DNA of 64,000 nt from Promethearchaeati archaeon SRVP18_Atabeyarchaeia-1 (lineage in GTDB: Archaea; Asgardarchaeota; Atabeyarchaeia; Atabeyarchaeales; Atabeyarchaeaceae), in contig CP147779.1 in the NCBI GenBank assembly GCA_037308085.1, forward strand, positions 2,656,001 to 2,720,000. Reading direction: 5' to 3'. Below are positions 40,881 to 58,930 of the stretch, piece after piece. The notes under the pieces were generated by a model, which searched no databases, had not been told where the DNA came from, and worked only from the letters and a program-made list of their open reading frames with translations. Every line of letters starts with the position of its first letter. Within the stretch, counting starts at the first letter, position 1. The position numbers and the translations under genes are program-made.

Positions 40881-41522
40881 CTACTTCCTGCGAAGCCGCG
40901 GAAGCAGCCGCCTAGTGCGCTGCATGTACTCCTCATACCTGTTCCCAAAATGATCGAGCATCATTTGTTCCTCACCATCGATCCTCTTATAGATTATCAA
41001 CAAAGTCAACGCAGAGACAACTAGAATAAGCCAGTCAACCGCCACAAATCCTGTCGCAAACATGAAAATCAAAGATGCAGTGTACATCGGATGCCGGATT
41101 CGACTGTATGGTCCCCAAGTGACCAGTCTGTGCTTTGGCCTCACTTCTAGTTTGAATGTCCAAAACACTCCCAGAGCCCTGTGAGCCCAAACGAGTAGCG
41201 CAAGTGACAACACACCCAAGCTTACACCAAGCAACTCAACCCAAATTGGAGTCGGAAATGGGATTGCACTCCATGCCCGCCACGGAGGATAGACGATGTA
41301 GAGAAGCATCATGACAGCCCAAACGATCGCCACAAGATCCTGGAGCACAATGTCGCGCCTGCGCTCATACCTGCTACGGCGCAATCGAAACCTCTTACTC
41401 CTCAACTCAGGATCTATTGCCCTGACTTTGCGCTCATAGTATCCTCTGATGCCTCCAAACACGACCAGGAGAACTAGGAGAGTCAACCTGAAGAACAACT
41501 CTTCATCAATTGGGAAAAACAT
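40881..41522 (-). CDS. isoprenylcysteine carboxyl methyltransferase family protein
   Basis: LVTWGPYSRIRHPMY and EEQMM...FG..YEEY motifs. Confidence 0.88.
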   Translation of the reverse strand: MFFPIDEELFFRLTLLVLLVVFGGIRGYYERKVRAIDPELRSKRFRLRRSRYERRRDIVLQDLVAIVWAVMMLLYIVYPPWRAWSAIPFPTPIWVELLGVSLGVLSLALLVWAHRALGVFWTFKLEVRPKHRLVTWGPYSRIRHPMYTASLIFMFATGFVAVDWLILVVSALTLLIIYKRIDGEEQMMLDHFGNRYEEYMQRTRRLLPRLRRK

Positions 41523-42954: not shown

Positions 42955-43773
42955 TTACTCAAAATCGGCGCACATCAACCCAAAATACGTTGGCGCCTGA
43001 TATGAGACGAACCTTGCTTTCATGGGAACACGCTCCAAAACGCCTTCCAGAATGGCCATTTGCCAGAGACTATCAGGCTTCGCGTTTTCCACAAACTGCA
43101 GATCCAGCGCAAGTATTTGCTTCAGGTTGTTTTCCCTTATTGCCTTTACCACCAGCTCGTCGTATTCTCTGGATGCCGGGTGAAAGCCGTACGGCCCAGA
43201 TTTGTCGTGGGCGTGCCCCTGATCTGCACTGGAGACAAAGGCTATCTTCCTCTGTGATTTCTCTGCAGTTCCAGCTATGACTCTGCCAAATTCCACAAGT
43301 TGGGTGAGCGGGATTTCTCTGGAAGGCGTCACGATGACTATTCGAGGTTTCTTCTTTTCTTTTGCGCCAAAAAACCATAAAGGTATTAGCACGCCCCAGT
43401 CCATCGGCATACAAGAGGCCGGCCCCTCACTAGTGCCATAATTCGCGCCTACAACGGGCAATCCTGCTTTCTTGGCGGCTTCGTAGATCTTTCGCGCGAG
43501 TTGATGGTTGCACTTGAAACGGGCGCTTACCGCCTTGCCATTATCTTCCAGGTTACCTGCAGAATATCGAGAGGTCACCACGCCGATTGTCCGGTCGAGC
43601 CTCAAGCCGTGAGGCGTCGCTATGATTATCGTGTCTGGTCTATGACTCCTCATATGCCTGGCTAACTCTTCCATGCCTCTTCTTGTTTCGCCGAAAGCCT
43701 CCAACTTGTCACCAGCAAGTTCAGGAATAGCCTCAGACCCGTGCGGCGCTACACAAGCATAAACAATACCCAT
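42955..43773 (-). CDS. LigB/MEMO-like extradiol dioxygenase family protein
   Basis: APHG, TPHG, MDWGVLIPL and SADQGHAH motifs. Confidence 0.85.
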   Translation of the reverse strand: MGIVYACVAPHGSEAIPELAGDKLEAFGETRRGMEELARHMRSHRPDTIIIATPHGLRLDRTIGVVTSRYSAGNLEDNGKAVSARFKCNHQLARKIYEAAKKAGLPVVGANYGTSEGPASCMPMDWGVLIPLWFFGAKEKKKPRIVIVTPSREIPLTQLVEFGRVIAGTAEKSQRKIAFVSSADQGHAHDKSGPYGFHPASREYDELVVKAIRENNLKQILALDLQFVENAKPDSLWQMAILEGVLERVPMKARFVSYQAPTYFGLMCADFE

Positions 43774-44513: not shown

Positions 44514-44672
44514 CTACATCTGGAAGCCTGTCTTGCCAGCACCCACATCGTCAGGGCAGTCTCAAGCTCCTCATGCTCCTCAGCATAATCGCTGACCTTG
44601 ATACCCCCCATCACAGCATCAATCGCCTACCTAAAAGCACGAGGACCAGCAGTAGAACGCTCGGGAGTAGGC
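44514..44672 (-). repeat. RLP last-exon copy 1 (degenerate)
   Basis: Encodes ...AFR*AIDAVMGGIKVSDYAEEHEELETALT...GFQM*; terminator-like T-tract at about 44474-44490. Confidence 0.9.
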
Positions 44673-44902
44673 CACACCTTGCACTGCATGATTATGGTTC
44701 GACGGCTCACCTTACGCAGTGTGGTTTACTTCTATTGAGACTCGTGTAACCACTTTTAGTTGCAGTGATGCAAGGAGAATGATTCGAAATATGAACCAGT
44801 GTGCCCCTCGTTGAGCTATCTCTGGATTTGCTTAACAAAAAAGAGGGATGGAAGCTCTGCAGGAAGGCCGATGCCACAACCGGGATGACGTCATGGTCTG
44901 TG

Positions 44903-45550
44903 CTATTTGCGCCTCATGTACATTAGGGCTGCTACGATCACAAGAAGGGCTGCTGCTCCCCCAGCAACCAATACAAGCGTCAGCGGTATGCCGCCCGACT
45001 CGATATAATATGAGTTCAGCGTGTAGTTTTCCGTTAATCCTGCTCCATTGTTGTATCTCCAAACGAGGAGGACGCCGGTGAGTTTGTCTATGTAAGCTAC
45101 GACGTTGATGTCCATGATTGTTCCATTGATGTAGTTGGCTGTCCAGTAGCGCCCAGCGATATGATAGTTGGAGACCGTTGAGTTGAATTTCCAGCCTCCT
45201 GAACTAGGATACGGTGCCTCTCCTGCCGTGATGTTCGCTGCTACGAATCGCCAAATGCCATATTGGTACACATTCACATCGAAGGTGCCCGAGTGAGTAT
45301 TGTTCACGGAACCTCCCGGGTTGTACTCGGTCTTCTCTAGTGTGAGTACTGAGCCGCTGACTGCGGTGACGCGAACCCTAATTGCGTTGATAGCAAAGCC
45401 CGCCGCACTATAGGCGTAATCGTAGTAGGCATTTGTTCCCACAACTGCTCCCGGCTTAGTGTAGTCTGCTGCGCGTGTTGGGGCAAAGCTTGAGGAAACG
45501 ACCAATAGAATCGACAATGCCACCAGCGCGCAGGCTATTCCCTTTCTCAA
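44903..45550 (-). CDS. secreted or surface protein with C-terminal membrane anchor (cassette cargo)
   Basis: Signal peptide, Tyr/Asn/Thr-rich body, TM segment plus RRK tail. Confidence 0.8.
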   Translation of the reverse strand: MRKGIACALVALSILLVVSSSFAPTRAADYTKPGAVVGTNAYYDYAYSAAGFAINAIRVRVTAVSGSVLTLEKTEYNPGGSVNNTHSGTFDVNVYQYGIWRFVAANITAGEAPYPSSGGWKFNSTVSNYHIAGRYWTANYINGTIMDINVVAYIDKLTGVLLVWRYNNGAGLTENYTLNSYYIESGGIPLTLVLVAGGAAALLVIVAALMYMRRK

Positions 45551-45771
45551 GTGTTGTTACTCTCCATCTTCTTTCCCTATTCGCCCCTTATTGATTGATT
45601 GAGTATGTATCGTTTCAGTATTTTAAGTTTGCATCGCGTCAGCTACGGCCCTCGAGGCTTCTGGATCGCAGCTTAGGGTCGCTTGACGTTTTTCCCAGTC
45701 TCTTAAGCGCGCACGCTTACTAAGGCAAAAAGAAAAGTTGAGGAGAATCGAATTATTCTCCTTCAGCGCTC

Positions 45772-45805
45772 TTACATCTGGAAGCCTATTTTACCAGTAC
45801 CATCT
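45772..45805 (-). repeat. RLP last-exon copy 2 (short)
   Basis: GTGKIGFQM-TAA, followed by hairpin AGGAGAAT/ATTCTCCT and a T-tract. Confidence 0.75.
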
Positions 45806-45887
45806 TCACTCTGAAAAACGGAGCCGACGAGAACTCCACACCTTGAAGCAGCCAAAAACCAAATTAAAACTACTAAGATCTATTCTG

Positions 45888-46256
45888 CTATTTCTTCCTA
45901 TCCAAGTTTTCCTTAACTCTATAGCTCACTATTCTCTTTACTAGGTCAAATGGAATTGGCTTATTCATAGGAAATCTGACGGTACCTTTGCTTACTTCAT
46001 AATCAGACAACTCTTCTTTGAATGCCTCAATACCTGATGAAGTGGGATAAAACCCAATATGATTCTTAAAGGCTGCAAAATGAACCAAGTTACCATTTAA
46101 TTTGAAAGTAGGAATTTGATAACTGATTGCCTCTTCTGCTTTAGGCGCTGAGTCCCTAATTGCCTGCCTCAGCTCCTCCAAAATCCTCTGCACATTCTTA
46201 GGAAAAGTAGCAATATACTCATCTATCGTTTTGAACACTTTCCTAGGTGTTGCCAT
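45888..46256 (-). CDS. DUF1801 (YdhG-like) protein (cassette cargo)
   Basis: TIDEYI, ISYQIPTF and HIGFYP motifs; AT-rich. Confidence 0.88.
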   Translation of the reverse strand: MATPRKVFKTIDEYIATFPKNVQRILEELRQAIRDSAPKAEEAISYQIPTFKLNGNLVHFAAFKNHIGFYPTSSGIEAFKEELSDYEVSKGTVRFPMNKPIPFDLVKRIVSYRVKENLDRKK

Positions 46257-46386
46257 AGCGCTTCCCTGCAATCAATATTTCTTAGACGAAAAATCACCCA
46301 GAACCTAATGAGCACTCCGATTTAAAGACACAGATCCAATTCCAGCACGCGCATGCGCCATTTCACTCTGTTCGCTATATGCGGCC

Positions 46387-46671
46387 TCAGGCAACCTCAT
46401 GATAGAAGTTAACTTCGATGCCAGCCATAATCGGTCCGATATTCTTGAAAAACTCCTTATAGTATGGCGTCGAACCATGGTACTTCAAGGCTTCATCGCT
46501 CTCATATTTCTCAAAGATAAGGAATTGGTTCGGGTTTTTGACGTCTTGGTGGAGAACGTAGGCTATTGCACCAGGGTCTTTACGGACTTTGGGAGCAAGC
46601 TTACGGAACTCCCGCTCAAATTCCTCTCTCTTACCCTCAACTACCTTGATTACAGCCACTACAACAATCAT
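46387..46671 (-). CDS. putative quinol monooxygenase (ABM) protein (cassette cargo)
   Basis: DPGAIAY...FLIFEKYES...H pattern. Confidence 0.85.
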   Translation of the reverse strand: MIVVVAVIKVVEGKREEFEREFRKLAPKVRKDPGAIAYVLHQDVKNPNQFLIFEKYESDEALKYHGSTPYYKEFFKNIGPIMAGIEVNFYHEVA

Positions 46672-47039
46672 GGCCTAAATACCTCCTCTCGGTGATGGCG
46701 ACAACAAAAGATGTACACCATTCAACATATCAAAATATCGAGAGGGGCCGTAAAATACTGGTTTGGACTTTGAAGCGTGGGCTATAATGGTTAGTGTTCA
46801 TAGGATGAAGCATTGGGCAGAAACCACCAAAAAAGAAGGTTGTAGGTCTATAGAATAGAAAATTGTGCCTATGGTCTCATCTACACAATTCGACCTTGAG
46901 TCATAATTCCATCCCATCCCCTTAGGTCAAGAAATGCGACTATCTCAAATAAGATAAACAGGGATGAGTCTCTTGACAATGCCAGTGCGCCAGAAAAAAG
47001 AAAAAGAGAGAAGGATTTACCTACTACAGCTCGGTTCCC

Positions 47040-47193
47040 TCACATCTGGAAGCCTGTTCTACCACCGCCCCACTTCGTGAGGGCAGTCTTAAGCTCCGAA
47101 TGCTCCTCAGCATAGTCACTGACCTTAATACCCTGCATCACAGCATCAATAGCCTGCCGGAAAGCATGAGTATCAACCGCTGAACCATCTTGG
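47040..47193 (-). repeat. RLP last-exon copy 3
   Basis: In frame QDGSAVDTHAFRQAIDAVMQGIKVSDYAEEHSELKTALTKWGGGRTGFQM-TGA. Confidence 0.95.
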
Positions 47194-47376
47194 GGAGAGA
47201 GAGTTATTAGGGAATGACTCGCCTACCTACTGTGAACAGAAACTCAATCCATCCAAATGACATCTTGCAACGGACAAAGCCAGCTTCTAGTCTTGAATCG
47301 ATCGGAACGCGCAGAGTGAGCTTTAGCTGTGGGGAATCGCAGCCGGATACGACTAACCTGCGAGCGGGGTATTAGA

Positions 47377-47658
47377 ATGCAAGTGGAGGAGATACAGAAG
47401 AAGATTGCTCCCGCGCTAAGGCGTTACGGTGTGGCGAGAGCCGCGATCTTTGGCTCATACGCTAGGGGAGAAGAGAGAAAAGGAAGTGACATAGATATCC
47501 TCATCGAATTCGAAGGAGACAGGAGTCTACTCGATCTCGCCGGACTCAAGATCGAACTTGAGGAGGTCTTGGGAAGAAAGGTGGATGTCCTAACTTATGA
47601 CTCAATTCACCCTTTGCTTAGAGAGCGAATTCTGAATGAACAGAAGGTGATCCTATGA
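47377..47658 (+). CDS. MNT nucleotidyltransferase antitoxin
   Basis: [15 protein letters not shown] (GS-X10-DXD). Confidence 0.92.
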
Positions 47659-48023
47659 AGAAGGATCCACTAGTATTCGTTGATCACATTCTCGAAAGCA
47701 TAGAAACGATAGAGGAATACGTTCGAGGAACAACAAAAGAAGAGTTCATGAGTTCGAAGAAAACTCAAGACGCTGTGATTAGAAGAATCGAGATCATTGG
47801 AGAAGCTGCAAAGAACATTCCGGAAGACATGAAGAAAACCCATCCCAACATACCCTGGAAAAGAATAGCCGGAATGAGAGACATACTGATCCATGGATAC
47901 TTCGGCGTCGACTTGGGATTAACGTGGAAAGTTGCCAGCGAAGAGATCGAGGAATTGAAGAACAAGATTGCGAAGGTAAAGAAAGATCTCCAGAAAGCAC
48001 GAGAAAAGGTAGCCAAGCAATAG
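47655..48023 (+). CDS. HEPN (DUF86/HepT-like) RNase toxin
   Basis: EIIGEA and RDILIHGY (R-X4-H); overlaps the MNT gene by 4 nt. Confidence 0.92.
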
Positions 48024-48074
48024 CCCCAAAAAAGAAGAGAGAGAGAGGGATCTTCCTATTCCTTCTCGGTTCCC

Positions 48075-48193
48075 TCACATTTGGAAGCCCGTCTTACCCG
48101 TGCCCCACTTCGTCAGGGCAGTCTTAAGCTCCTCATGCTCCTCAGCATACTCACTAACCTTGACACCCTGCATCACAGCATCAATCACTTGCC
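48075..48193 (-). repeat. RLP last-exon copy 4
   Basis: QVIDAVMQGVKVSEYAEEHEELKTALTKWGTGKTGFQM-TGA. Confidence 0.95.
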
Positions 48194-48559
48194 CATGAGC
48201 CATTGTTCAACCCAGCAAGTTTTCAACCTTGCAGCGCCTCAAGAAAGGGAATTGAAGAAGTTGACTACAAGTTGGCTTCCTCTGAAGCATATTCCCAAAT
48301 GCAATGGAATACTTCTATCTTTGTGTCGGAGCCTGTAAGCCAATTATAGACAACATATCTCTAGCCGTGAAGACAGATTCGACCTTGCATTGGAACCATG
48401 CGATGTGCCCATTGTTTGCCACATACTTTGTTCGTTCTTTCAGCACTTCGAACAGCATCCCTTCTTCAACCTCGAATACGCTGTATGACATAGATCCATG
48501 ATCGTCCACAACAAAGAAAGACTCTCTTTCGTATGTCGGGTGCGGTTTTTGGGTTGGTC

Positions 48560-49567
48560 TTAGCTTCTAGCAGGCCCTTTTCCGATAACCCTCAGTTTCG
48601 TCGTAAGAGGTGTGAGCGGAAGTCGTCGTGCCTTGATGGGGCCTTCGGGAGGCTTGCGTGAGATTTTCGGCTTAACGTTGGTTGGGTACACCCGATATAT
48701 TCCGTCCTCAATGTCATTAGGTACTTTCCAGAACCACGTATAGCTGTCTTGTGCATCGATAGAGAAGTCTTCGTCTATTCTGAAGGTGAGAGCTTTGCTG
48801 AAGTCGTCCTCTGTGCTGATTCGTTTGTCCTGTCTCGCTACTGCCCACATGATGGTTCCCCTGCGGTACCATGCCGGAGCACTGCCTGAGTCAGCCAAGC
48901 TGGTCAGGGTTATGCCAACTTCGCCCCCAGCCTTGCATGTCAGCCGATCCATTGTCCAGTCTACGATCCCGTAATCGTATCCCGGATTTGATTGAAACGT
49001 GACCCCGAGAGCGCCGTACGCAAGAATTCCGAGAACGACGATCAAGACGTAGTCGGGATACAGAATCGCCCAACCCAAGATAAACACTCCAGCAATGAAA
49101 GCCCCATAAACGCAACTCACATACAGTTGCAGATGACCATGTTCATACTTTGATTTCATGAACCCGGTGAGCTTGAGGTTTAGGGCGCTCTCAATGAGAC
49201 TTGCTCGCGTTGCTGCTGCATCCGCACTAACTTGGTAGATATGATCAATCAAGTGAAGCGCGATAATGAGTATCACAGTGACGGCCAGGACAGCTGCCTT
49301 AACGATATCTGGCAATACCGTGCCGATTGTCCCCGTCGGGATGAGTACGGACTCTGTTGCCAAGAGTGCTGTGATGAAGCTGAAGCCATATTTCCTCAAA
49401 CCATTCAGGCGTTCCTCGAAGCCATCAATCACTTCTCGTGCTGCCTTCCATTCCATTATGAGGTTGTTATTACTGTCTTCTCCTTTGTCAGTACCCGCGC
49501 TTCCCCCCTCCTTCACCGTTCTGATAAACTTCAGTGGAAGCACTGAGTACAGGCTACTATTTAGCAT
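48560..49567 (-). CDS. hypothetical membrane protein (cassette cargo)
   Basis: 335-aa ORF, 4 TM segments then a beta-rich C-terminal domain. Confidence 0.65.
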   Translation of the reverse strand: MLNSSLYSVLPLKFIRTVKEGGSAGTDKGEDSNNNLIMEWKAAREVIDGFEERLNGLRKYGFSFITALLATESVLIPTGTIGTVLPDIVKAAVLAVTVILIIALHLIDHIYQVSADAAATRASLIESALNLKLTGFMKSKYEHGHLQLYVSCVYGAFIAGVFILGWAILYPDYVLIVVLGILAYGALGVTFQSNPGYDYGIVDWTMDRLTCKAGGEVGITLTSLADSGSAPAWYRRGTIMWAVARQDKRISTEDDFSKALTFRIDEDFSIDAQDSYTWFWKVPNDIEDGIYRVYPTNVKPKISRKPPEGPIKARRLPLTPLTTKLRVIGKGPARS

Positions 49568-49925
49568 TATTGGGCTCTACGCAGTGAGATGGGTAGCGAT
49601 GAGAGTCATGCGGATCAGCCTTTTAAGTCGATCTGCCCAAACGCGGAAACGGAGAATTTCGCAGACCTTTGCCTGATGTCATTGGCACACTACTATCAGA
49701 TTAGCGCACATGCCTCTTCCCTTCTCCTCCTTCTTTGTTCCGCATAACTGCGGTGGAACTACTGGATAGGAGGCGCAATTTAGCGTTATTGGGCGGTGAA
49801 GGTGGGAGGTCATCGCAGCTACCCCCGCACTTTTCTCCCACCCTGTTTTTTGGCGCGCGCCAACTCCGTCCGTCTAGTAAGACTGCCAAATCAAGAAAGG
49901 GGAACGGAAATTCATTTATTCCCGA

Positions 49926-50062
49926 CTACATCTGGAAACCAGTTCTGCCACCGCCCCACTTAGTCAGAGCAGTCTTCCCAAGCTCCTCATGCTCCCCAGC
50001 ACATCCATTGACCTTGATGCACTGCATCACAACATCAATAGCCTGACGAAATGCACGAGCAC
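49926..50062 (-). repeat. RLP last-exon copy 5
   Basis: ARAFRQAIDVVMQCIKVNGCAGEHEELGKTALTKWGGGRTGFQM-TAG. Confidence 0.93.
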
Positions 50063-50207
50063 TGAGGGCAAATGGCTGCCCATAATCCGCCTGTCATTGG
50101 ACGCGCGCACACTCTAGGGCGAAAAATGCCAACGGGAGAAGCGGTATAAAGGCGTTTGACGTAAGCCTCCTATGACGTATTCATCCTGAGGTGGGAGCGC
50201 AGAGAAG

Positions 50208-50600
50208 ATGGATCGTAGCAAAGACTGGATGGATGAAGCTGAAAGCGATCTTGATCACGCAAGAAGCGATCTCAAGCAAGGATTTAACAATTGGGCATGT
50301 TTCTCTACCCAGCAGTCTGCCGAGAAAGCCGTCAAAGCAGTATTCCAGAAAATGCACGCCGAGGCATGGGGCCACTCGGTAGCGGATCTTCTCACAGAAT
50401 TGTCAAAGAAACACAAAATCCCAAATGAACTTCAGGACAAGGCACTCGAACTCGACAAAGCGTACATACCAACTAGGTATCCTAATGCCCATCCATCGGG
50501 ATCCCCAAGAAGCAGATATACAAAAGACGAAGCAAGAAGGCTGATTAGCAATGCAGAGGAAGTACTCCGGTTCTGCAAAGATCTTCTATCCAAAGTATAG
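50208..50600 (+). CDS. HEPN domain protein
   Basis: WACFSTQQSAEKAVKA, GHS and AYIPTRYP motifs. Confidence 0.92.
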   Translation: MDRSKDWMDEAESDLDHARSDLKQGFNNWACFSTQQSAEKAVKAVFQKMHAEAWGHSVADLLTELSKKHKIPNELQDKALELDKAYIPTRYPNAHPSGSPRSRYTKDEARRLISNAEEVLRFCKDLLSKV

Positions 50601-50913
50601 CCGTGATGACTTACTGGAACTACTGAAGCTAAAAGTGGAAGCCCTTAAGAGAGTTCTCCAAGTATCCCTCGTCGCCTTATTTGGCTCATACGCAACAAAC
50701 TCCTACACCGCTGCGAGTGACATTGATTTACTCGTCGTCTACAAAGGACATGCCAAGGACGCTTATACAACAGTGAGGAAAGCATTTGGACTCCCTCTAT
50801 TGGAGCCTCATGTGTATTCCGAAGAAGAGTACACCACAATGAAAGAGACTCTTCACAAAATGACTGCTAATAGTATCACCATCTATTCAGATGGTAGCCT
50901 TCCACAGGGCTAG
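50551..50913 (+). CDS. MNT nucleotidyltransferase
   Basis: LFGSYATNSYTAASDIDL. Confidence 0.9.
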   Translation: MQRKYSGSAKIFYPKYSRDDLLELLKLKVEALKRVLQVSLVALFGSYATNSYTAASDIDLLVVYKGHAKDAYTTVRKAFGLPLLEPHVYSEEEYTTMKETLHKMTANSITIYSDGSLPQG

Positions 50914-51043
50914 CAGACGAGAAAAGTGAATGAGTCGGAAAGAAAATCTCCCAGTCCGACCTGCCGCTATTCTATCCAACCAAGCGCACGCCACGACTCT
51001 TCAAATACAAAAGGGCAAGTTCTTTGACTCCCTTCTCTACCAT

Positions 51044-51176
51044 TCACATCCGGATACCTGTCTTACTAGCATCCTAATTCGCCAAAGCAGTCTTCAACTC
51101 CTTATGCTCCCCAGCATAATCACTGACCTTGATGCCCTGCATCACAACATCAATAGCTCGCCTGAGAGCGCCAGCA
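51044..51176 (-). repeat. RLP last-exon copy 6 (degenerate)
   Basis: RRAIDVVMQGIKVSDYAGEHKELKTAL... ending ATG TGA. Confidence 0.88.
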
Positions 51177-51334
51177 ACGTATATGCAATACCAGACCTTC
51201 CCAGAATTCCACAAGTCAACTCGCTAGCTGATTAGAGGACAAGCCTCCAGCCTCGCAACGCTTATCTTTCAGCTTGCTAATAGAAGGAACAATAGAACCT
51301 TAGTCAAAGCTAATCGCCTCTTGCCGGTTATGAC

Positions 51335-51769
51335 TTGGTGGGGAACTGCACCTTGGTCGAGAATCGCGCTGTCAGCACAACAAGCGATGTCGAGCATGCG
51401 ATCATTGAAGCCGTTAAACCGTTCAATAATCTCGTCCTAGTCTACCTTTTTGGCTCCTTTGCTAGCGGAAGACCTCATGCCTTCAGCGACGTTGACGTCG
51501 CCATATATTTCCGAGAGTTCTCTATGGCTGAATTCATGAAGGTTCACGGAGCTCTGAGCAGAGCGTTGGGAGCACAAGTGGACACCATTCCCCTCAATAT
51601 AGCCCCACCTCTCTTGAGATACGAGATATTGAAAAAAGGGAAACGGCTGATCTCCAAGGATGAGACAATCAGGATCGCCTATGAATCCAGAGCCATCTTG
51701 GAAGGATTAGACGAGAGACCACTAATCGAGGCAATAAGAGAGGCAAATCTGAGGAGAGTCTTGATATGA
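51335..51769 (+). CDS. MntA-like nucleotidyltransferase antitoxin
   Basis: YLFGSFASGRPHAFSDVDVA and LNIAPPLLRYEI motifs. Confidence 0.9.
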   Translation: MVGNCTLVENRAVSTTSDVEHAIIEAVKPFNNLVLVYLFGSFASGRPHAFSDVDVAIYFREFSMAEFMKVHGALSRALGAQVDTIPLNIAPPLLRYEILKKGKRLISKDETIRIAYESRAILEGLDERPLIEAIREANLRRVLI

Positions 51770-52182
51770 CCGCTGAGTCTGTCAGAGATGCCATCAACAA
51801 GCTAAAGGAATTATCCTCGAAGACATCAAGAACGATTTTCATGTCTGACTGGAAGCTTCAGGGAACAATCTTATGGCTATTATACACCGCTTTGCAGGGA
51901 TGCATAGATCTCGCCGCAAAACTAATCTCAGCCATGGGGAAGAAAACCCCCGACTCGTACTCCGATGCCTTCAGAATCCTTGGCGAAGCAAACGTTTTCA
52001 CCCCAGAAGAAGCCGAACGCTTCTCCAATATGGCAAAGTTCAGAAACGTACTAGCCCATTCCTACACCAGCGTCAACCTGGAACTTGTATTCGAGCAGCT
52101 CCAACATGGCATAGCTGACATCGAAAGCTGCCTAAGGAAACTCGTGAAGGAATCAAGCAAGCACAATCTCCTGCTCCCATGA
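51766..52182 (+). CDS. HepT-like (DUF86) HEPN toxin
   Basis: PDSYSDAF and FRNVLAHSY (R-X4-H); 4-nt overlap with the MNT gene. Confidence 0.9.
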   Translation: MTAESVRDAINKLKELSSKTSRTIFMSDWKLQGTILWLLYTALQGCIDLAAKLISAMGKKTPDSYSDAFRILGEANVFTPEEAERFSNMAKFRNVLAHSYTSVNLELVFEQLQHGIADIESCLRKLVKESSKHNLLLP

Positions 52183-52237
52183 GACCGCAAACCACCAAGG
52201 AAAAGCAGAGGGAGTTTGGCGAGTGCCCCAATGCCGC

Positions 52238-52330
52238 CTACAAATGGAAGCCTATCCTACCGGCACCCGCTTGGTCAAAGCAGTCTCAAGCTCCACATGC
52301 TCCTCAGCATACTCGACCAGCTTGATGCAC
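52238..52330 (-). repeat. RLP last-exon copy 7 (degenerate)
   Basis: IKLVEYAEEHVELETALTK...GFHL-TAG. Confidence 0.85.
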
Positions 52331-52369
52331 AGTGACAAGCGACCTTCAATTCCTTCCAAGGTCTACATG

Positions 52370-52816
52370 CTATTCATCCTCGTACTCCTCTTCTTCAACC
52401 TCCAAGTCAAGACCAAGCGTCCCAAGCTCCTCTATAGCCTCCCTTTTCGGCACATCCTTCGTGAAGTCTATATCATAGAGACCTCCATAAGCACTCCAAC
52501 CCCTCCCGATAAGGATCCTCAAGGTCTTAGCACAATCCTTGAGCCTGGAATGCAGTTCCTCTCCAAGCTTCTCCAACTCAACGGCGAAATCCTCGCCAAG
52601 CTCCTCACCCTCCAAACCGTCAAGCTCCCAAGCAGGCTTGCCAAACAAGGAAAGCATAACCCTACTAAACTTCCCAGCACCATCGCTATTGCCCACACAG
52701 ATCACCATCCAACTAGTGCTCCCAGCCTCGGCTTTAAAGACCACACCAGAAGGAAGAACCACTGTCGCCTCCCCACAAGGAGAGACAAATACAGATCTTT
52801 CTGGATGATGGATCAC
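52370..52816 (-). CDS. hypothetical acidic protein (cassette cargo)
   Basis: 148-aa ORF filling the space between repeat copies 7 and 8. Confidence 0.55.
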   Translation of the reverse strand: MIHHPERSVFVSPCGEATVVLPSGVVFKAEAGSTSWMVICVGNSDGAGKFSRVMLSLFGKPAWELDGLEGEELGEDFAVELEKLGEELHSRLKDCAKTLRILIGRGWSAYGGLYDIDFTKDVPKREAIEELGTLGLDLEVEEEEYEDE

Positions 52817-52873
52817 CGCACCAATGACGCAAAAAAAAGTGGAGTGGAGAACTCATGATTCTCCCCCAATTCT

Positions 52874-52936
52874 CTACATCTGAAAGCCTGCCCTGCCCGT
52901 ACCCCATTTCGTCAAAGCAGTCTTAAGCTGCTCGTG
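52874..52936 (-). repeat. RLP last-exon copy 8
   Basis: HEQLKTALTKWGTGRAGFQM-TAG, followed by a hairpin and T8 tract. Confidence 0.92.
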
Positions 52937-52951
52937 ACTAGGCAGGCACTT

Positions 52952-53848
52952 TCATTTTTTTATCTGCTCGAGTGATGCTTGGCGTTTTCCGAGGAAGAAA
53001 CCTGCGGAGCAGATTAACGCAATCCCAACTACCAGAAAATAAGGGGAATATGGAGAGGGGGAGGCAAATTGATAGATTAGAAAGTAGATTATAATGGGCG
53101 CAATCTGTTGGGGGATTTGTTGCACGGGCACTACAATGCTCGCATTTCCAGCGTTAAGCGCGTATTGGTAATGGCCTAGTCCGATGACATTTGCCAAGAT
53201 CGCGATTGTCGCAGAAATCAAGAAGATTATCCATTCGAAAATGCCCGCGCTCCCCCCGAGAACAATGGTCAGGGAAACTATCATTGGCTGCAACCAAATG
53301 TTTCCCACTACGAATGGAAAACCTGTTCCCAGCGCAAGCAAGATAGCCCTGTGTTTTTCTGCTTTCCTACCGGAATAAAATAGTCCTAGCCACAGGGCGA
53401 TGAACAAAATAGAGAACAATGCAAGCCTTACATTAAAAGCAGCATCAAAGAAGTAGGTCAGGCTGCCAGCTATTGCGAGTTGGCTAAACCCAATTAGCGT
53501 AATCGCTACCGCCAAGAGAATAATGGCAAGAATCTCGAAGATTCTCAGGGACTCCTTCAAAATGAACACAGAACCAATTGCGAGAATAATGAAACCGGAC
53601 GCCCCTAACCCGGGCATAAGTGCCGCCCCGACAATGGCCTGGGCTACAAAGAGAAAAACAGAACTAAAGGCGACCATACAAATAATTCCTAACAGCCAAG
53701 TTTTATTTCGCACTAAGGATTTAACGAGACCCTTGTCCCGTCTCTCCGGCGCAGTATCATTAATCGCCTTTTTCTGAAGCACCTGTCCGAGGAAGTTCAA
53801 TAAGCCCGCCAAAATACCAAAAAGAACGCCAAGGACATAATCCGCCAT
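52952..53848 (-). CDS. DMT/NIPA-like membrane transporter (cassette cargo)
   Basis: GQVLQKKA, LVRNKTWLLG and ILKESL; 9-10 TM segments; AT-rich. Confidence 0.75.
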   Translation of the reverse strand: MADYVLGVLFGILAGLLNFLGQVLQKKAINDTAPERRDKGLVKSLVRNKTWLLGIICMVAFSSVFLFVAQAIVGAALMPGLGASGFIILAIGSVFILKESLRIFEILAIILLAVAITLIGFSQLAIAGSLTYFFDAAFNVRLALFSILFIALWLGLFYSGRKAEKHRAILLALGTGFPFVVGNIWLQPMIVSLTIVLGGSAGIFEWIIFLISATIAILANVIGLGHYQYALNAGNASIVVPVQQIPQQIAPIIIYFLIYQFASPSPYSPYFLVVGIALICSAGFFLGKRQASLEQIKK

Positions 53849-54010
53849 AAGTTCTTCACATTTCTTGATTTTTGGAGTTATGAGCATAAAGGAGTTGGAA
53901 GCACGATATTAGATTTGCTAATGACACAACCGAGGAAATCTTGGGGTTCCTATATGTATTAGGCTCACCTCAAACTGCAGAATTTTCACCGGTCAAAAGT
54001 CAACTGTGAT

Positions 54011-55324
54011 TCAGGTTTCGCCAAATTGATTTTCTAGTAGTAAATCTGCGATAAGGGTGGACCACCCAAAGTTTTTCGCCCCATATCCCTGTCCCGTAAG
54101 GGGGTTGTATTGTTCCCGGAATCCTGATCTGAGAACCATCTCCGCCAACCTTGCAGTAATTTTCGCAGCGATGTCCTCAAACCCGAGATGCTGGAGGCCT
54201 TTTACCACGTACCACGACATGCAAATCCAATTAGGTCCGCGCCAAAGAGTCATTAGGGACCCCCTTGGGTTAAATTTCGGGGAGGATTTGGCTACGCACG
54301 GCAGAGGGTAAGGCAACCAAAACTCCCCTTCGTTGAGTACGTGATCTCGGACGAGTCGTTCTGCTTTCTTCCCGTCTATGTCTAATATAAGTGGGAAGAG
54401 CCCTGAGATTGTTATTTCGGGGTATGCTTCACCCGTAACTGCGTCAATGGAATAAAAGAAGCCGGCATTTTCGTCCCAGCATCTTTGTTCCAGCGATTTT
54501 TGGGCGGTTGCAGCGCGCGTGCGGTAAATTGCGGCGTGATTTTCGTCCCCTGCAAAATCGCAGAGTTCTGCAAGCACCTGCAGGTTCCGGATGTAAATGC
54601 AATTAAATGACACGTCGTTCACGCAAAAATGGTTTGGGCCCTGGAGATTTTTAATGCGTTTGATGTCCCAACCCACTCCATTGTATTCGCGAATAATCGC
54701 ACCTAACCACCTCCCCGTGCGTATTCCAAGCAAGTGCTGAATGTGGTGGATATGGTCCCAGATAGGCAACAAATCCATGCCAGACTCCCACGGGTGGATG
54801 ATGGCGACTAGGCCATCCCCAGACACTTGTTCGCTCCGTTCCGCGTTTAACCAATCATAATACCGCTGCATTGGAGCGAGGATCTGGGACAAAAACTCCA
54901 GATCTCTTGTTTTTTCAAATACAGCTGTCACTGCCTGCGCGAGGAGTGGGGGTTGAGTGATATGGCTCCGGTCCTTTTCGGGCCATTTACCCCTGAACAA
55001 GAAGTCCCCCATACGAGGCTTAAACCCGGTCGCCGGTCGCCAATAAAGCATGTGGGGTATCATACCACTTTCGAATTGTTTGCGCGTGAGGGTGAGCAAT
55101 TCCTGCATCGCAATGACCGGGTCAAAATGCGCCCACATGATAGCATGAAAGCAACTATCCCAGAGCCACTGATGCTGGTACGTATCTTGGCTTGGACAAG
55201 TATAAGTGAAATCTACTCCCTTTACCAAGTTTCCCTCCAAGACCGCCCGCGCTCTCTTCACCAATGTATACGCATCGATGTTGGTCTTTTCGTTAGGGCT
55301 GTTCACAAGTGCATCATCTCCCAA
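54011..55324 (-). CDS. GH63-like (alpha/alpha)6 glycoside hydrolase
   Basis: QWLWDSCF, TQPP, HPWESGMD, WRGPNW, FREQYNP and FGWS motifs. Confidence 0.88.
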   Translation of the reverse strand: MGDDALVNSPNEKTNIDAYTLVKRARAVLEGNLVKGVDFTYTCPSQDTYQHQWLWDSCFHAIMWAHFDPVIAMQELLTLTRKQFESGMIPHMLYWRPATGFKPRMGDFLFRGKWPEKDRSHITQPPLLAQAVTAVFEKTRDLEFLSQILAPMQRYYDWLNAERSEQVSGDGLVAIIHPWESGMDLLPIWDHIHHIQHLLGIRTGRWLGAIIREYNGVGWDIKRIKNLQGPNHFCVNDVSFNCIYIRNLQVLAELCDFAGDENHAAIYRTRAATAQKSLEQRCWDENAGFFYSIDAVTGEAYPEITISGLFPLILDIDGKKAERLVRDHVLNEGEFWLPYPLPCVAKSSPKFNPRGSLMTLWRGPNWICMSWYVVKGLQHLGFEDIAAKITARLAEMVLRSGFREQYNPLTGQGYGAKNFGWSTLIADLLLENQFGET

Positions 55325-56060
55325 TGAAGTCTAGAAGTATCTTATTGAACTTGTCTGGCTGCTCGATCATAGGCATGTGCCCTGCTTCAAAAATCATCTC
55401 TAGTGTCGATCCCTCTATACTCTCATGGAGAATCGCCGAAGAAGAAGCGAGCATATCATCAGCACCACACACGATCAATGTCGGGACCTTGATCTCCTTG
55501 ACCCTTCCGCTCAGGTCTATTCCGTTCAGAGCATCAAAGTCGTTAGCCAGGATGCTCGGATCGAAATCCGCCTCCACCCTAAAGTACTTCATTAACGAAG
55601 ACAGGTTCCCTTCAGTAAGCATCTTTGGAGACAAGAGCCTATTCAACAACTGGAGGCCAGCTTCCGCAGGATTATGGCGAATGCGGGCTGGGAGGTCGCC
55701 CAGGTTCTGAAACTTGGCACCGCTATCGATTATGATGAGTCTCTCAACAAGCTCTGAATGCTCCAGCGCTAGCAGTTGAACTATCACACCACCCATCGAG
55801 TGACCCGCAATGAGCCCCCTCGCTACCTTAGCCTGCTTCATGAAACCGACGACATGTCTGACGTACCCCTCTATTGTCGGCTTCTCCTTCATGCGCTCAG
55901 ACTTACCATGACCAGGAAGATCGATTGCAATAACCCTCAACCGCTTCGATAGTTCAGAAAGCTGGTTGACCCAGTAGCTGCTCATTCCACCTGCTCCATG
56001 AATTAGAATCAGTGCCCTTCCTTTTCCCCTGGATTCATAGAAAGTCCTCAGACCATCCAC
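55314..56060 (-). CDS. alpha/beta hydrolase
   Basis: IHGAGG, DLPGHG, GHSMGG and AGH motifs. Confidence 0.92.
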   Translation of the reverse strand: MDGLRTFYESRGKGRALILIHGAGGMSSYWVNQLSELSKRLRVIAIDLPGHGKSERMKEKPTIEGYVRHVVGFMKQAKVARGLIAGHSMGGVIVQLLALEHSELVERLIIIDSGAKFQNLGDLPARIRHNPAEAGLQLLNRLLSPKMLTEGNLSSLMKYFRVEADFDPSILANDFDALNGIDLSGRVKEIKVPTLIVCGADDMLASSSAILHESIEGSTLEMIFEAGHMPMIEQPDKFNKILLDFIGR

Positions 56061-56173
56061 AGTAACGAAGGGCGTATGGCATTCAACTCCATGACGTTGA
56101 GTGGCAGTACTATTTCGCCGATCTGTCTTTTATTCCCTACGCACGCGGGGAAACCAGTCCACACTTGATCTTA

Positions 56174-56215
56174 CTACATCTGAAACCCTGCCCTAGCACC
56201 GCTCCACTTGGTGAG
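56174..56215 (-). repeat. RLP last-exon copy 9
   Basis: LTKWSGARAGFQM-TAG, about 80 bp after the real gene's stop. Confidence 0.85.
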
Positions 56216-56294
56216 TCTCGGGCTTCGGGGTAACCACACCAGTCATTTTAATCCAAAAAAGAAGGAGGGATTCCGCAGATCTCCCAAATGCCCT

Positions 56295-57664
56295 TCACAT
56301 TTGGAAACCTGTTCTGCCGCCGCCCCACTTAGTGAGAGCAGTCTTCAGCTCCTCATGTTCCTCAGCGTAGTCACTGACCTTGATACCCTGCATCACCGCA
56401 TCAATCGCTTGCCTAAAGGCTCTTGCACCAGCAGCTGGACCGTCCGGGTGAGCGTGGACTACGGGTCCATCAATTAAAGATGGACTTTCCGCCTCCGGAC
56501 CCGATCATGATGTTGTTGCCGAGCATTTTCATGGTTTTCTCCACGTGGCCGGCAGTAATACCACCGCTTGGCATAGGCATCGTCGGCTTGATATGCTGCA
56601 AAGGAAACTGTAATCGCTTCGCCATCATCAAAAATTTGTCCTCAAGCAACGGAGCTTTGCCGTAGGGCGCCGGAACCAGGGCTATATCGGTCCCACATAT
56701 GCGCGGTAGCTTGGACATTATGAGAGACGGGGATACTCCCGTTATTGGACTATAGCTGATTTCGCCAGCCTCTTCAGCCGTGTGCGCCGGCTATGTCCAT
56801 ATGCCCCATTATTGGCAATGTGTTTGGTTCTTCTGCTACCATGCGTAGGGCGTCGTATCCGACTGCGAGGTAGTTGATGAGTAGGGCGTTTCCGCCTGCC
56901 TGTTTGACTTTGTCGGCGTTTTCGAGTAGTTTGTCTACTGGGCCGGTTATGTTGCAGCAGTAGAGTGTCTTTTCATCTTTTTCTTTGTTTGCTTTTTCTG
57001 CTTTTTCCATGTAGAGTGGGACGCGGTCTTCTATTTTGTTGTATGCTGGGTTGGCGATGATTTCGTCGTCTTTTATACAGTCAGTTCCGCCTACTGCGGC
57101 GCCGTAGAAGAGTTCTGCGCCTACTTCGGGCGTGTAACCCGTCTTGGGTTTTATCATATTATTCAGGAGTGGCCGTTTGGGTATGTCCATGAGGTCTCTT
57201 ATTCCTTGGAGTCCGTGTTTGGGTCCTTTGAATCCTTTGAGCCATTGTTTGGGGAACCATAGGTCCATGAGTTTGATTCTTCCGCCCATGCTGAGGTTGC
57301 CGATGACTGTGCTGAGTAGCATGGGGATTTCTGTGCCGAAGTTTTCCCATGGGAAGCCTACTGCGATGATGAAGTTGCGGTGGTCTACTTCCTTTGGGAC
57401 GGAGTAGACGTATTCGGGTGTTTCCCAGATGCCGAGTACTTTTGCTTGTCGCTTGATTTTGAGTTCTACTGTTTCGCCTGGGACTGGGGTCCAGGTGCCT
57501 GTGCTTTGTTCTAGGGCTGCCATTTCTGCTACGTCAGTTATTGGTAGTGCGGGGTTGAGTCCTGCGAAGTAGAATCCGATGACGTATTTGTCTGTGTCGA
57601 GGCCGTCGAAGAATCCTTGGGGTTGGGCTTCTATGGGTATTTCGTTTGGTTTTTCTTCAGACAA
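56295..57664 (-). CDS. RuBisCO-like protein (form IV), 439 aa after splicing; exons 57664-56782, 56759-56487, 56458-56295
   Basis: EQSTGTW, IKPKTG, IKDDE, PMPSGG. It has HMD and PAPYGK where true RuBisCO has HRA and the H327 region, indicating an RLP. 1370 nt minus 22 minus 28 = 1320 nt, an open frame. Confidence 0.88.
56459..56486 (-). other. 28-nt bulge-helix-bulge pre-mRNA intron (intron 2)
   Basis: GCGG-AA^A-GUCCAUC-UUUAAUU-GAUGGAC-CCGU-AG^U; removal gives GGA GGC GGA AUC CAC GCU CAC CCG GAC (GGGIHAHPD). Confidence 0.85.
56760..56781 (-). other. 22-nt relaxed bulge-helix-bulge pre-mRNA intron (intron 1)
   Basis: AUAGCCG-GCGC-AC^A-CGGCU-GAAGA-GGCUG-GCGA-AA^U-CAGCUAU; removal gives GCC GGC GCA CUC AGC UAU (AGALSY) in frame. 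Confidence 0.78.
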
Positions 57665-58582: not shown

Positions 58583-58930
58583 TTGGTATTTGATTGGTAT
58601 CGTCGAAGGAAGCGAGCTTTCGGTAACAAGCGAAGCTCCCACTGGGGCGACGTGAGGAAGAAGTACCTGAAGACACACGGTACGTGCGCGGTGTGTGGCA
58701 CAAAGGATCATCTTGAGGTTCACCACATAGTTCCGTTTCACGTCGACCCGAGCAAGGAGCTGCAGCCGACCAACTTTGTAACGCTGTGCCAGTCGAAGAG
58801 TCACAATGACCACCTGATTTTCGGCCATCTGCTGGATTTTCACGCGATGAATACGAAAGTGGTCACCGACGCGAACACCTACCGAGGCGAACTTGCGAAG
58901 CGCAAGATTGTGAAGGGAGATTCAGGATAG
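58583..58930 (+). CDS. small stand-alone HNH endonuclease
   Basis: CAVCG...LEVHHIVP...NFVTLC...H pattern. Confidence 0.82.
   Translation: MVFDWYRRRKRAFGNKRSSHWGDVRKKYLKTHGTCAVCGTKDHLEVHHIVPFHVDPSKELQPTNFVTLCQSKSHNDHLIFGHLLDFHAMNTKVVTDANTYRGELAKRKIVKGDSG

Follow-up and report, generated by a model that had tools for sequence, protein, structure and literature searches.

Displaced copies of a RuBisCO-like protein gene end, diverged under protein-level selection, delimit a cassette array in an Atabeyarchaeia chromosome

The window analysed here is a stretch of 64,000 nucleotides from the chromosome of Promethearchaeati archaeon SRVP18_Atabeyarchaeia-1 (contig CP147779.1, positions 2,656,001 to 2,720,000). 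On its minus strand it carries a gene for a RuBisCO-like protein (RLP) and, downstream of this gene, nine displaced copies of its 3' end, with small cargo genes lying between them. While the lineages of these copies diverged, each of them still supplied the translated C-terminus of a functional enzyme. We consider it probable that each repeat is the relic of a once-functional RLP last exon together with its own terminator, and that the cassettes between the repeats were captured by recombination. A preliminary description of the window, made from its sequence, had proposed that each copy evolved under protein-level selection in a different allele or relative before being displaced, rather than by local duplication and drift. 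The analysis presented below bears out the selection on the protein and excludes local duplication followed by drift, while an origin of the copies from different donors is likely but not proven.

Results

Divergence of the displaced gene ends under selection on the protein

Selection was assessed in four sets of sequences: seven long copies of the array, four largely intact copies, 19 long copies from three genomes, and four resident alleles. The ratio of non-synonymous to synonymous substitution rates (dN/dS, or omega) was estimated with the Goldman-Yang codon model in IQ-TREE, and pairwise dN/dS with the Nei-Gojobori method. Omega was 0.198 in the seven array copies (omega = 1 rejected, p = 5e-11), 0.116 in the intact copies (p = 3e-10), 0.23 in the 19 copies of three genomes (p = 6e-21), and 0.061 in the resident alleles (p = 5e-14). 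Pairwise values ranged from 0.03 to 0.47, with 0.74 for one pair made up of two decayed copies. A dN/dS near 1, which the preliminary description had set against its own reading, was thus not what we found.

That the copies differ mostly at synonymous sites had been noticed before, and the counts agree with it. Diversity at the first, second and third codon positions was 0.165, 0.174 and 0.342 in the array and 0.13, 0.10 and 0.40 in the intact copies, third positions varying about twice as much as first or second ones. The pooled ratio between the proportions of non-synonymous and synonymous differences (pN/pS) was 0.28 in the true reading frame versus 1.42 and 1.19 in the two shifted frames, a control that keeps the composition and the substitution pattern of the sequences. 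Copies 3, 4, 8 and 9 (c47, c48, c52b and c56a; both designations are given in Table 1) are in frame, as described, and encode ..KTALTKWG(G/T/S)G(R/K/A)(T/A)GFQM with the third-position alternatives previously quoted (ACT/ACG/ACC, GGT/GGC/GGG, TTC/TTT and CAA/CAG). Equally, the decay reported for copies 1, 6 and 7 was recovered in the form of stops or single-base deletions. All three stop codons are used across the array, but not, as had been stated, by copies 3, 4, 8 and 9, which use only TGA and TAG: TGA closes the resident end, c51, c48 and c47, TAG closes c56a, c52b, c52a, c49 and c44, and TAA is found in c45 only.

The changes were also divided according to the number of copies in which they occur. 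Substitutions private to one copy comprised 18 synonymous and 82 non-synonymous changes, against a neutral expectation of 0.22-0.255 for the synonymous fraction, whereas variants common to at least two copies comprised 41 synonymous and 34 non-synonymous ones and were enriched in synonymous changes (p = 7e-8). Since private changes look neutral and shared variants are rich in synonymous ones, protein function has acted as a filter on the older variation between alleles but not on the recent, copy-specific one.

A more demanding value than omega = 1 applies if all copies are fossils of the lineage in which they now reside. In that case, any two copies would be connected by lineages of which one or both had been neutral throughout, so that pairwise omega should not fall below about 0.5, a floor that is our own derivation. 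Omega = 0.5 was rejected for the array (p = 1e-4), for the intact copies (p = 2e-5) and for all copies (p = 5e-7). These results indicate that two or more functional lineages diverged in parallel.

Relationship of the copies to resident alleles

The copies of the source genome (Atabeyarchaeia-1, G000) were compared with those of its sister genome (Atabeyarchaeia-2, G002), to which it shows about 70% amino-acid identity, and of a third relative (G001), as well as with resident RLP alleles from metagenomes (L036 and L037). Every displaced copy differed from the resident end of its own genome by a pS of 0.5-0.84, which is at least as much as the whole RLP gene differs between the two species (pS 0.42 between G000 and G002; 0.57 for exon 3 alone). 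Copy c56a, which lies closest to the gene, belongs to the most divergent ones (pS 0.84 and pN 0.10 versus the resident), c52b being close to it (pS 0.83, pN 0.11), and c48 has not a single copy-specific substitution, yet shows a pS of 0.54. Allele types GGGR and G[A/T]GK alternate along the array.

Most copies of the source genome resemble their own resident less than they resemble the resident end of G002, L036 or L037. When the array copies and their own resident were forced into one clade, the log-likelihood dropped by 19.9 and the constraint was rejected (approximately unbiased [AU] test, p = 0.017); a clustering of the copies with the resident allele only, the other outcome against which the preliminary description had weighed its proposal, was therefore not observed. 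In turn, the array of G002 holds one copy of the G000-type allele class (77% bootstrap). A scan of metagenomes yielded two more resident alleles, with no displaced copy in the 1.6 kb and 0.3 kb of DNA downstream of them. Import from other lineages is the most likely source of the diverged ends, although not the sole possible one.

Organization of the array and its cargo

The ten RLP gene ends of the window, the resident exon 3 and the nine displaced copies, lie on the minus strand, the displaced copies extending from 44514 to 56215, downstream of the RLP gene and in the same orientation as the resident end (Table 1). The repeat family stands far above chance (nhmmer E values of 1e-14 to 1e-33 for the long copies), and a profile search of the window found no copy beyond these ten. 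In each copy, a C-terminal coding stretch, 7 to about 53 codons long, ends in a stop codon and is followed by a diverged 3' untranslated region (UTR) of about 45 nt. The copies are 70-89% identical to each other without any identical core, and their 5' ends are scattered from base 1 to base 141 of the exon. Copy c56a begins the series 121 nt downstream of the resident stop and c44 is its distal end.

Table 1. Positions in the window of the RLP gene, its displaced ends and the cargo genes.
Feature	Position	Strand	Description
RLP gene, resident	56295..57664	minus	Pfam RuBisCO_large and RuBisCO_large_N match exon 1
RLP exon 1	57664..56782	minus	open frame
Putative micro-intron, 22 nt	56760-56781	minus	frame break between exons 1 and 2
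RLP exon 2	56759..56487	minus	open frame
Putative micro-intron, 28 nt	56459-56486	minus	frame break between exons 2 and 3
RLP exon 3	56458..56295	minus	resident last exon, 164 nt; stop TGA 56295-56297
Copy 9 (c56a)	56174..56215	minus	13 codons LTKWSGARAGFQM and TAG (56174-56176), in frame
Copy 8 (c52b)	52874..52937	minus	20 codons HEQLKTALTKWGTGRAGFQM and TAG (52874-52876), in frame
Copy 7 (c52a)	52238..52330	minus	about 30 codons, decayed: 1-nt deletion, several replacements; TAG (52238-52240)
Copy 6 (c51)	51044..51163	minus	about 39 codons, TAG replacing Trp; stop TGA (51044-51046)
Copy 5 (c49)	49926..50062	minus	about 44 codons, in frame, 3-nt insertion, about 6 replacements; TAG (49926-49928)
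Copy 4 (c48)	48075..48193	minus	39 codons, intact; TGA (48075-48077)
Copy 3 (c47)	47040..~47203	minus	about 53 codons, whole last exon; TGA (47040-47042)
Copy 2 (c45)	45772..45813	minus	7-14 codons ..GTGKIGFQM; TAA (45772-45774)
Copy 1 (c44)	44514..44666	minus	about 50 codons, in-frame TAG, 1-nt deletions; stop TAG (44514-44516)
Alpha/beta hydrolase	55314-56060		cargo
MGH1-like glycoside hydrolase	54011-55324		cargo
NIPA-like transporter	52952-53887		cargo
Unknown, 148-aa	52370-52816		cargo
Second MNT/HepT pair	51335-52182		cargo
HEPN/nucleotidyltransferase pair	50208-50913		cargo
Unknown, 335-aa	48560-49567		cargo
MNT/HepT toxin-antitoxin pair	47329-48023		cargo
ABM monooxygenase	46387-46671		cargo
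DUF1801	45888-46271		cargo
215-aa membrane protein	44903-45550		cargo

The 3' UTRs had been described as mostly different. This is correct for their sequence, with a mean pairwise identity of 0.53 versus 0.46 for random 48-mers, but a shared layout had been missed: eight of the ten ends keep a short G-rich/C-rich hairpin followed by a pyrimidine or T run 21-34 nt past the stop, c45 having a perfect 7-bp hairpin and then a T run. We read these hairpins as terminator-like. Their folding z-scores were unremarkable, and structured att sites were rejected as an explanation for them. The 3' UTRs of c47 (47040-47090) and c48 (48075-48125), which flank one MNT/HepT cassette, are 78% identical, and their likeness suggests that gene conversion may have taken place between these neighbouring copies. 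Copy c47 is intact in its 3' two-thirds.

According to Pfam scans, the cargo zone (44667..56173) contains one to three genes between successive copies. They lie in both orientations with their own signals, and three MNT/HEPN-type toxin-antitoxin pairs are among them. The HEPN/nucleotidyltransferase cassette flanked by c51 is common to G001, and flanks with homology to the 3' flank of c49 occur in G001 as well as at 1.71 Mb of G000.

The resident RLP gene is spread over three reading frames, broken by inserts of 22 nt and 28 nt. The 22-nt insert is exactly absent from the RLP gene of G002, where the 28-nt insert is kept, and the latter is absent from the metagenome allele L036, a pattern of presence and absence among alleles that appears to fit introns and not errors. 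The C-terminal RLP peptide is conserved in orthologs across the phylum. Each of the resident alleles A, B, D and E terminates with ..KTALTKWG.G.TGFQM, so that replacement ends preserve both the frame and the protein. Between G000 and G002 the synonymous divergence of the gene (56295-57664 compared with L002/L032) is uneven, rising from a pS of 0.2-0.3 in the first third to 0.5-0.7 in the last, as would be expected if recombination with foreign alleles reached upstream of the last exon.

The source genome is a single contig of 2,808,651 bp (G002, 2,756,679 bp), complete, manually curated and validated with long reads (PMC11529989), which makes an assembly artefact unlikely. As arrays also recur in G002, G001 and in two genomes of one genus of another Asgard family (G033 and G150), this explanation was rejected.

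Arrays in other Asgard genomes

Among 400 Asgard genomes, extra RLP ends were found only in this family and in the genus of G033 and G150. About ten copies extend over 23 kb beside the RLP gene of G002, and G001 has at least five copies on two contigs. As in the window, toxin-antitoxin and defence genes abound in the cargo of both, with PIN, HEPN, MNT/HepT and a type IIG restriction-modification gene among them. Besides genes for a HerA-like ATPase and a double-HTH protein, the large cassette nearest to the RLP gene of G002 (L032:10318-13023) carries the type IIG (Eco57I/MmeI-like) restriction-modification gene, so that defence systems, too, are captured at this hotspot. The MNT/HepT cassette is common to G000, G002 and G001, and the HEPN/nucleotidyltransferase cassette to G000 and G001. 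Shared cassettes are ordered differently in G000 and G001, and the proximal copies have different 5' boundaries.

The pattern is cleanest in G033, where two displaced ends are intact, open over 88 and 111 codons, and start with ATG or TTG. Compared with each other and with the resident end, they show a pS of 0.69-0.79 and a pN of 0.07-0.095 (pN/pS 0.10-0.12). Since these copies are undecayed yet saturated at silent sites, they have not been idle for long and derive from alleles that were already highly diverged. Three more copies were found in G150.

Recombinase search and boundaries of the copies

Matches to the tyrosine recombinase family PF00589 are found in G000 only at 1.55, 1.66, 2.02 and 2.59 Mb, the nearest about 110 kb from the array, so that no tyrosine recombinase of this family lies within 100 kb of it. 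Pfam scans detected no recombinase family among the scanned open reading frames (ORFs) of the arrays or near the extra copies. With no tyrosine recombinase within 100 kb and no recombinase in the scanned cargo or by the extra copies, an integrase-driven array was rejected. The lack of a dedicated recombinase at the locus makes homologous recombination by the host the likely engine.

The longest copies correspond to the whole last exon in two families. In the window this is c47, whose homology begins at bases 1-5 of exon 3, with 7/12 and 8/12 identity versus 2/12 just upstream (47190-47203; anchored ungapped comparison). The resident RLP gene of G033 contains a 32-nt insert of the bulge-helix-bulge type (L040:1463-1494) at a codon (PAPYGK|APLL) unlike those of the window introns. 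Cut in the same way as the window intron, it gives PYGKAPLL, identical to the intronless gene of G149. The longest copy of G033 (114 codons, 340 nt; L039:2484-2830) starts 5 nt inside this insert, past the 8-bp palindrome arm. Such a start would point to a break of DNA at the intron palindrome rather than to an RNA intermediate, a hypothesis drawn from two lineages. We tentatively put forward, as a possibility that we ourselves hold to be rather unlikely, that the mobile unit is the last exon and that cassette formation is tied to the bulge-helix-bulge micro-intron: a break at the palindrome would free the last exon with its terminator and the downstream genes, which would circularise and, through homologous recombination, re-enter the gene of another cell.

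Discussion

In the explanation that we consider probable, a circle or fragment made up of a gene end, its terminator and one to three cargo genes would recombine homologously within the last exon of the RLP gene. The incoming end would become the working end, and the previous one would be shifted downstream as a relic, where it would decay neutrally through stops, frameshifts and random replacements. Copies would sometimes be refreshed or made chimeric by recombination between them. Other Atabeyarchaeia lineages are the most likely source of the diverged ends, but part of the signal could be due to the shuffling of cassettes in an old shared array. Host homologous recombination would drive these exchanges. 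Direct repeats can also excise the cassettes, and the toxin-antitoxin cargo, by counter-selecting loss, probably stabilises the array.

Several observations weigh against this reading or limit it, and it should be said that the recombination mechanism is itself deduced from sequence. The masking of codons with stops, gaps or frameshifts biases omega slightly downwards; the sequences are short (13-53 codons), their synonymous sites are near saturation and the pairs are not independent. The tree of the copies, built on about 117 sites, is star-like with weak support, the constraint test alone being informative. With four resident alleles available for comparison, the best resident match of any long G000 copy has an identity of 0.87-0.89 or less, and a scan of genome contigs for relatives of the glycoside-hydrolase cargo found them at 64% identity or less and none of them beside an RLP end. 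The best match of each copy had been suggested to lie beside the same cargo in another genome, but copies beside the same cargo in different genomes turned out not to be mutual best matches, and their pooled pN/pS is 0.37 (0.10-0.14 in some pairs) and not 1. In a three-way alignment, displaced coding parts show 0.72-0.84 identity and cargo genes 0.77-0.82, versus about 0.5 in the adjacent non-coding DNA. Because the copies are better kept than this non-coding DNA, they are not purely neutral relics and were re-formed or corrected by recombination, and such refreshing within the array could mimic part of the donor signal. The claim that each copy comes from a separate donor is thereby weakened to the claim that each lineage was mostly a functional end, and a copy lineage may now and then return to the role of functional end. 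If the cassettes had rotated and the copies had been refreshed in a single old array, without foreign donors, each copy would have been the functional end, and under selection, only intermittently. The conservation of the copies at the level of coding DNA and the low pN/pS of the same-cargo pairs fit this possibility, as do the different orders of shared cassettes among G000, G001 and G002, and the sharing of both flanking copies of a cassette implies an array older than the split of the species. We nevertheless hold it to be unlikely. Rotation would need several very old copy lineages (pS 0.5-0.8) to be kept side by side, the intact long copies of G033 (pS about 0.75, no decay) better fit a recent arrival of diverged alleles, and the copy of G000-type allele class in the array of G002 also speaks against it. 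As it, too, requires selection at the protein level, rotation contradicts only the donor part of the earlier claim.

The other explanations fare worse against the same data. If insertions simply duplicated the end that was resident at the time, the copies would be past alleles of their own lineage in neutral decay; several copies are indeed decayed, and the ancestral G(A/T)GK motif seen in distant orthologs is present in c44 and c45 at the distal side. However, this series predicts the omega floor that was rejected above, the copy nearest to the gene diverges most from the resident, GGGR and GTGK types alternate instead of following each other monotonically, and c48 is far from the resident without any private change, so that we regard it as improbable. 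Hardly any credit can be given to local duplication with neutral drift, or to att-like sites acting at the DNA level without protein constraint. The repeats are direct, have one orientation and delimit cassettes as att sites do, and some of them are broken, but omega = 1 was rejected with p = 5e-11 to 6e-21, the excess of third-position changes is present in the true reading frame only, and copies with variable 5' ends share no identical core. It also seems very improbable that the intact displaced copies are still in use, for instance in the role of an alternative last exon or a small protein, and that selection acts on them today. Such a use would agree with the intactness of c47, c48, c52b and c56a and with the open frames of G033, which have their own start codons. 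On the other hand, several copies contain stops or frameshifts, no copy of the window is preceded by recognisable intron or exon-2 sequence, and copy A of G033 retains only the last 5 nt of its intron. Private changes are neutral-like, and the variation of the peptide is so trivial that no diversity would be gained. We therefore retain the capture of cassettes between once-functional gene ends as the probable explanation.

Gene ends that are replaced by mobile elements are known from other systems. At icd of Escherichia coli, prophage 21 and e14 bring a substitute 3' end that leaves the protein nearly unchanged while introducing many synonymous differences. The array resembles this case in that the element supplies a substitute gene end and the old end is displaced downstream as a fragment. 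Prophage 21 and e14, however, use a site-specific integrase and a defined core, with one element per site, whereas in the array at least nine fragments have accumulated, their 5' ends vary, the cassettes are small, and neither a shared identical core nor a local integrase is present. The serial arrangement of units bounded by direct repeats of a target gene end is like that of SCC elements at rlmH/orfX in staphylococci or of tycheposons at tRNA genes. In SCC and tRNA-gene arrays, units without a recombinase of their own are common. These systems have att cores of 15-60 nt and dedicated Ccr or tyrosine recombinases, in contrast to the repeats described here, which reach the size of a whole exon (164 nt, or 340 nt in G033), diverge mainly at synonymous sites and have no linked recombinase. 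With integrons, including archaeal ones (PMC9668308), the array has in common one-directional, repeat-delimited cassettes of one to three genes, rich in toxin-antitoxin systems, at a fixed platform and in varying order. Unlike integrons, it has no IntI, attI or attC-type imperfect palindromes, its repeat is the end of a protein-coding gene plus a short hairpin, and its cargo lies in both orientations. Finally, the orphan C-terminal modules of rhs and cdiA are likewise displaced 3' fragments accompanied by small accessory genes and formed by homologous recombination in a conserved segment; their tips, however, are hypervariable toxins with immunity genes under diversifying selection, whereas the RLP tips, which are under purifying selection, all code for the same peptide, and the cargo has no relation to the RLP gene. 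In its logic, the array comes nearest to the icd elements (prophage 21 and e14) and to the serial accretion seen at rlmH or tRNA genes. The main text of the Genome Research study on mobile elements of this genome, a companion to PMC11529989, mentions neither this locus nor RuBisCO or direct repeats.

The formal tests show an Asgard chromosomal cassette array whose units are set apart by what were once functional ends of a metabolic gene and not by dedicated recombination sites, the ends recording two phases, selection and then decay. It points to a capture of genes without an integrase, through ordinary homologous recombination between diverged alleles, and may allow gene flow between uncultured Asgard lineages to be traced allele by allele. 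If the link between copy boundaries and micro-introns were true, it would join archaeal protein-gene introns with exon-sized recombination modules, and the exon-unit model would amount to an integrase-free, exon-bounded capture of genes in the closest archaeal relatives of eukaryotes.

Neighbouring genes and distant copies

About 1 kb upstream of the RLP gene lies a small HNH endonuclease gene (58583-58930, plus strand). A closely matching stretch of DNA (85% identity) is found in G002, at an unrelated position (1.27 Mb), and the gene hence looks mobile; a link of this endonuclease to breaks at the RLP locus is speculative. At the other side of the array, a PEMT/ICMT-like methyltransferase gene (40881-41522) and a LigB-like dioxygenase gene (42955-43773) are located just past the last copy. 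Homologs of the former in G002 and G001, and an inverted homolog of the latter in G002, lie inside the array between RLP-end copies, which indicates that in G000 the boundary of the array has moved or flanking copies have been lost.

Three further copies of the RLP end are present in G000 far from the RLP gene, at 1709985-1710091, 1711214-1711282 and 1800955-1801054. Two of the three flank a DUF4760 gene downstream of an ABC-transporter operon, and one has the 3' flank common to c49 and a copy of G001. Among the ORFs scanned near these copies at 1.71 and 1.80 Mb no recombinase was found. The three distant copies may be transposed cassettes or remnants of rearrangements.

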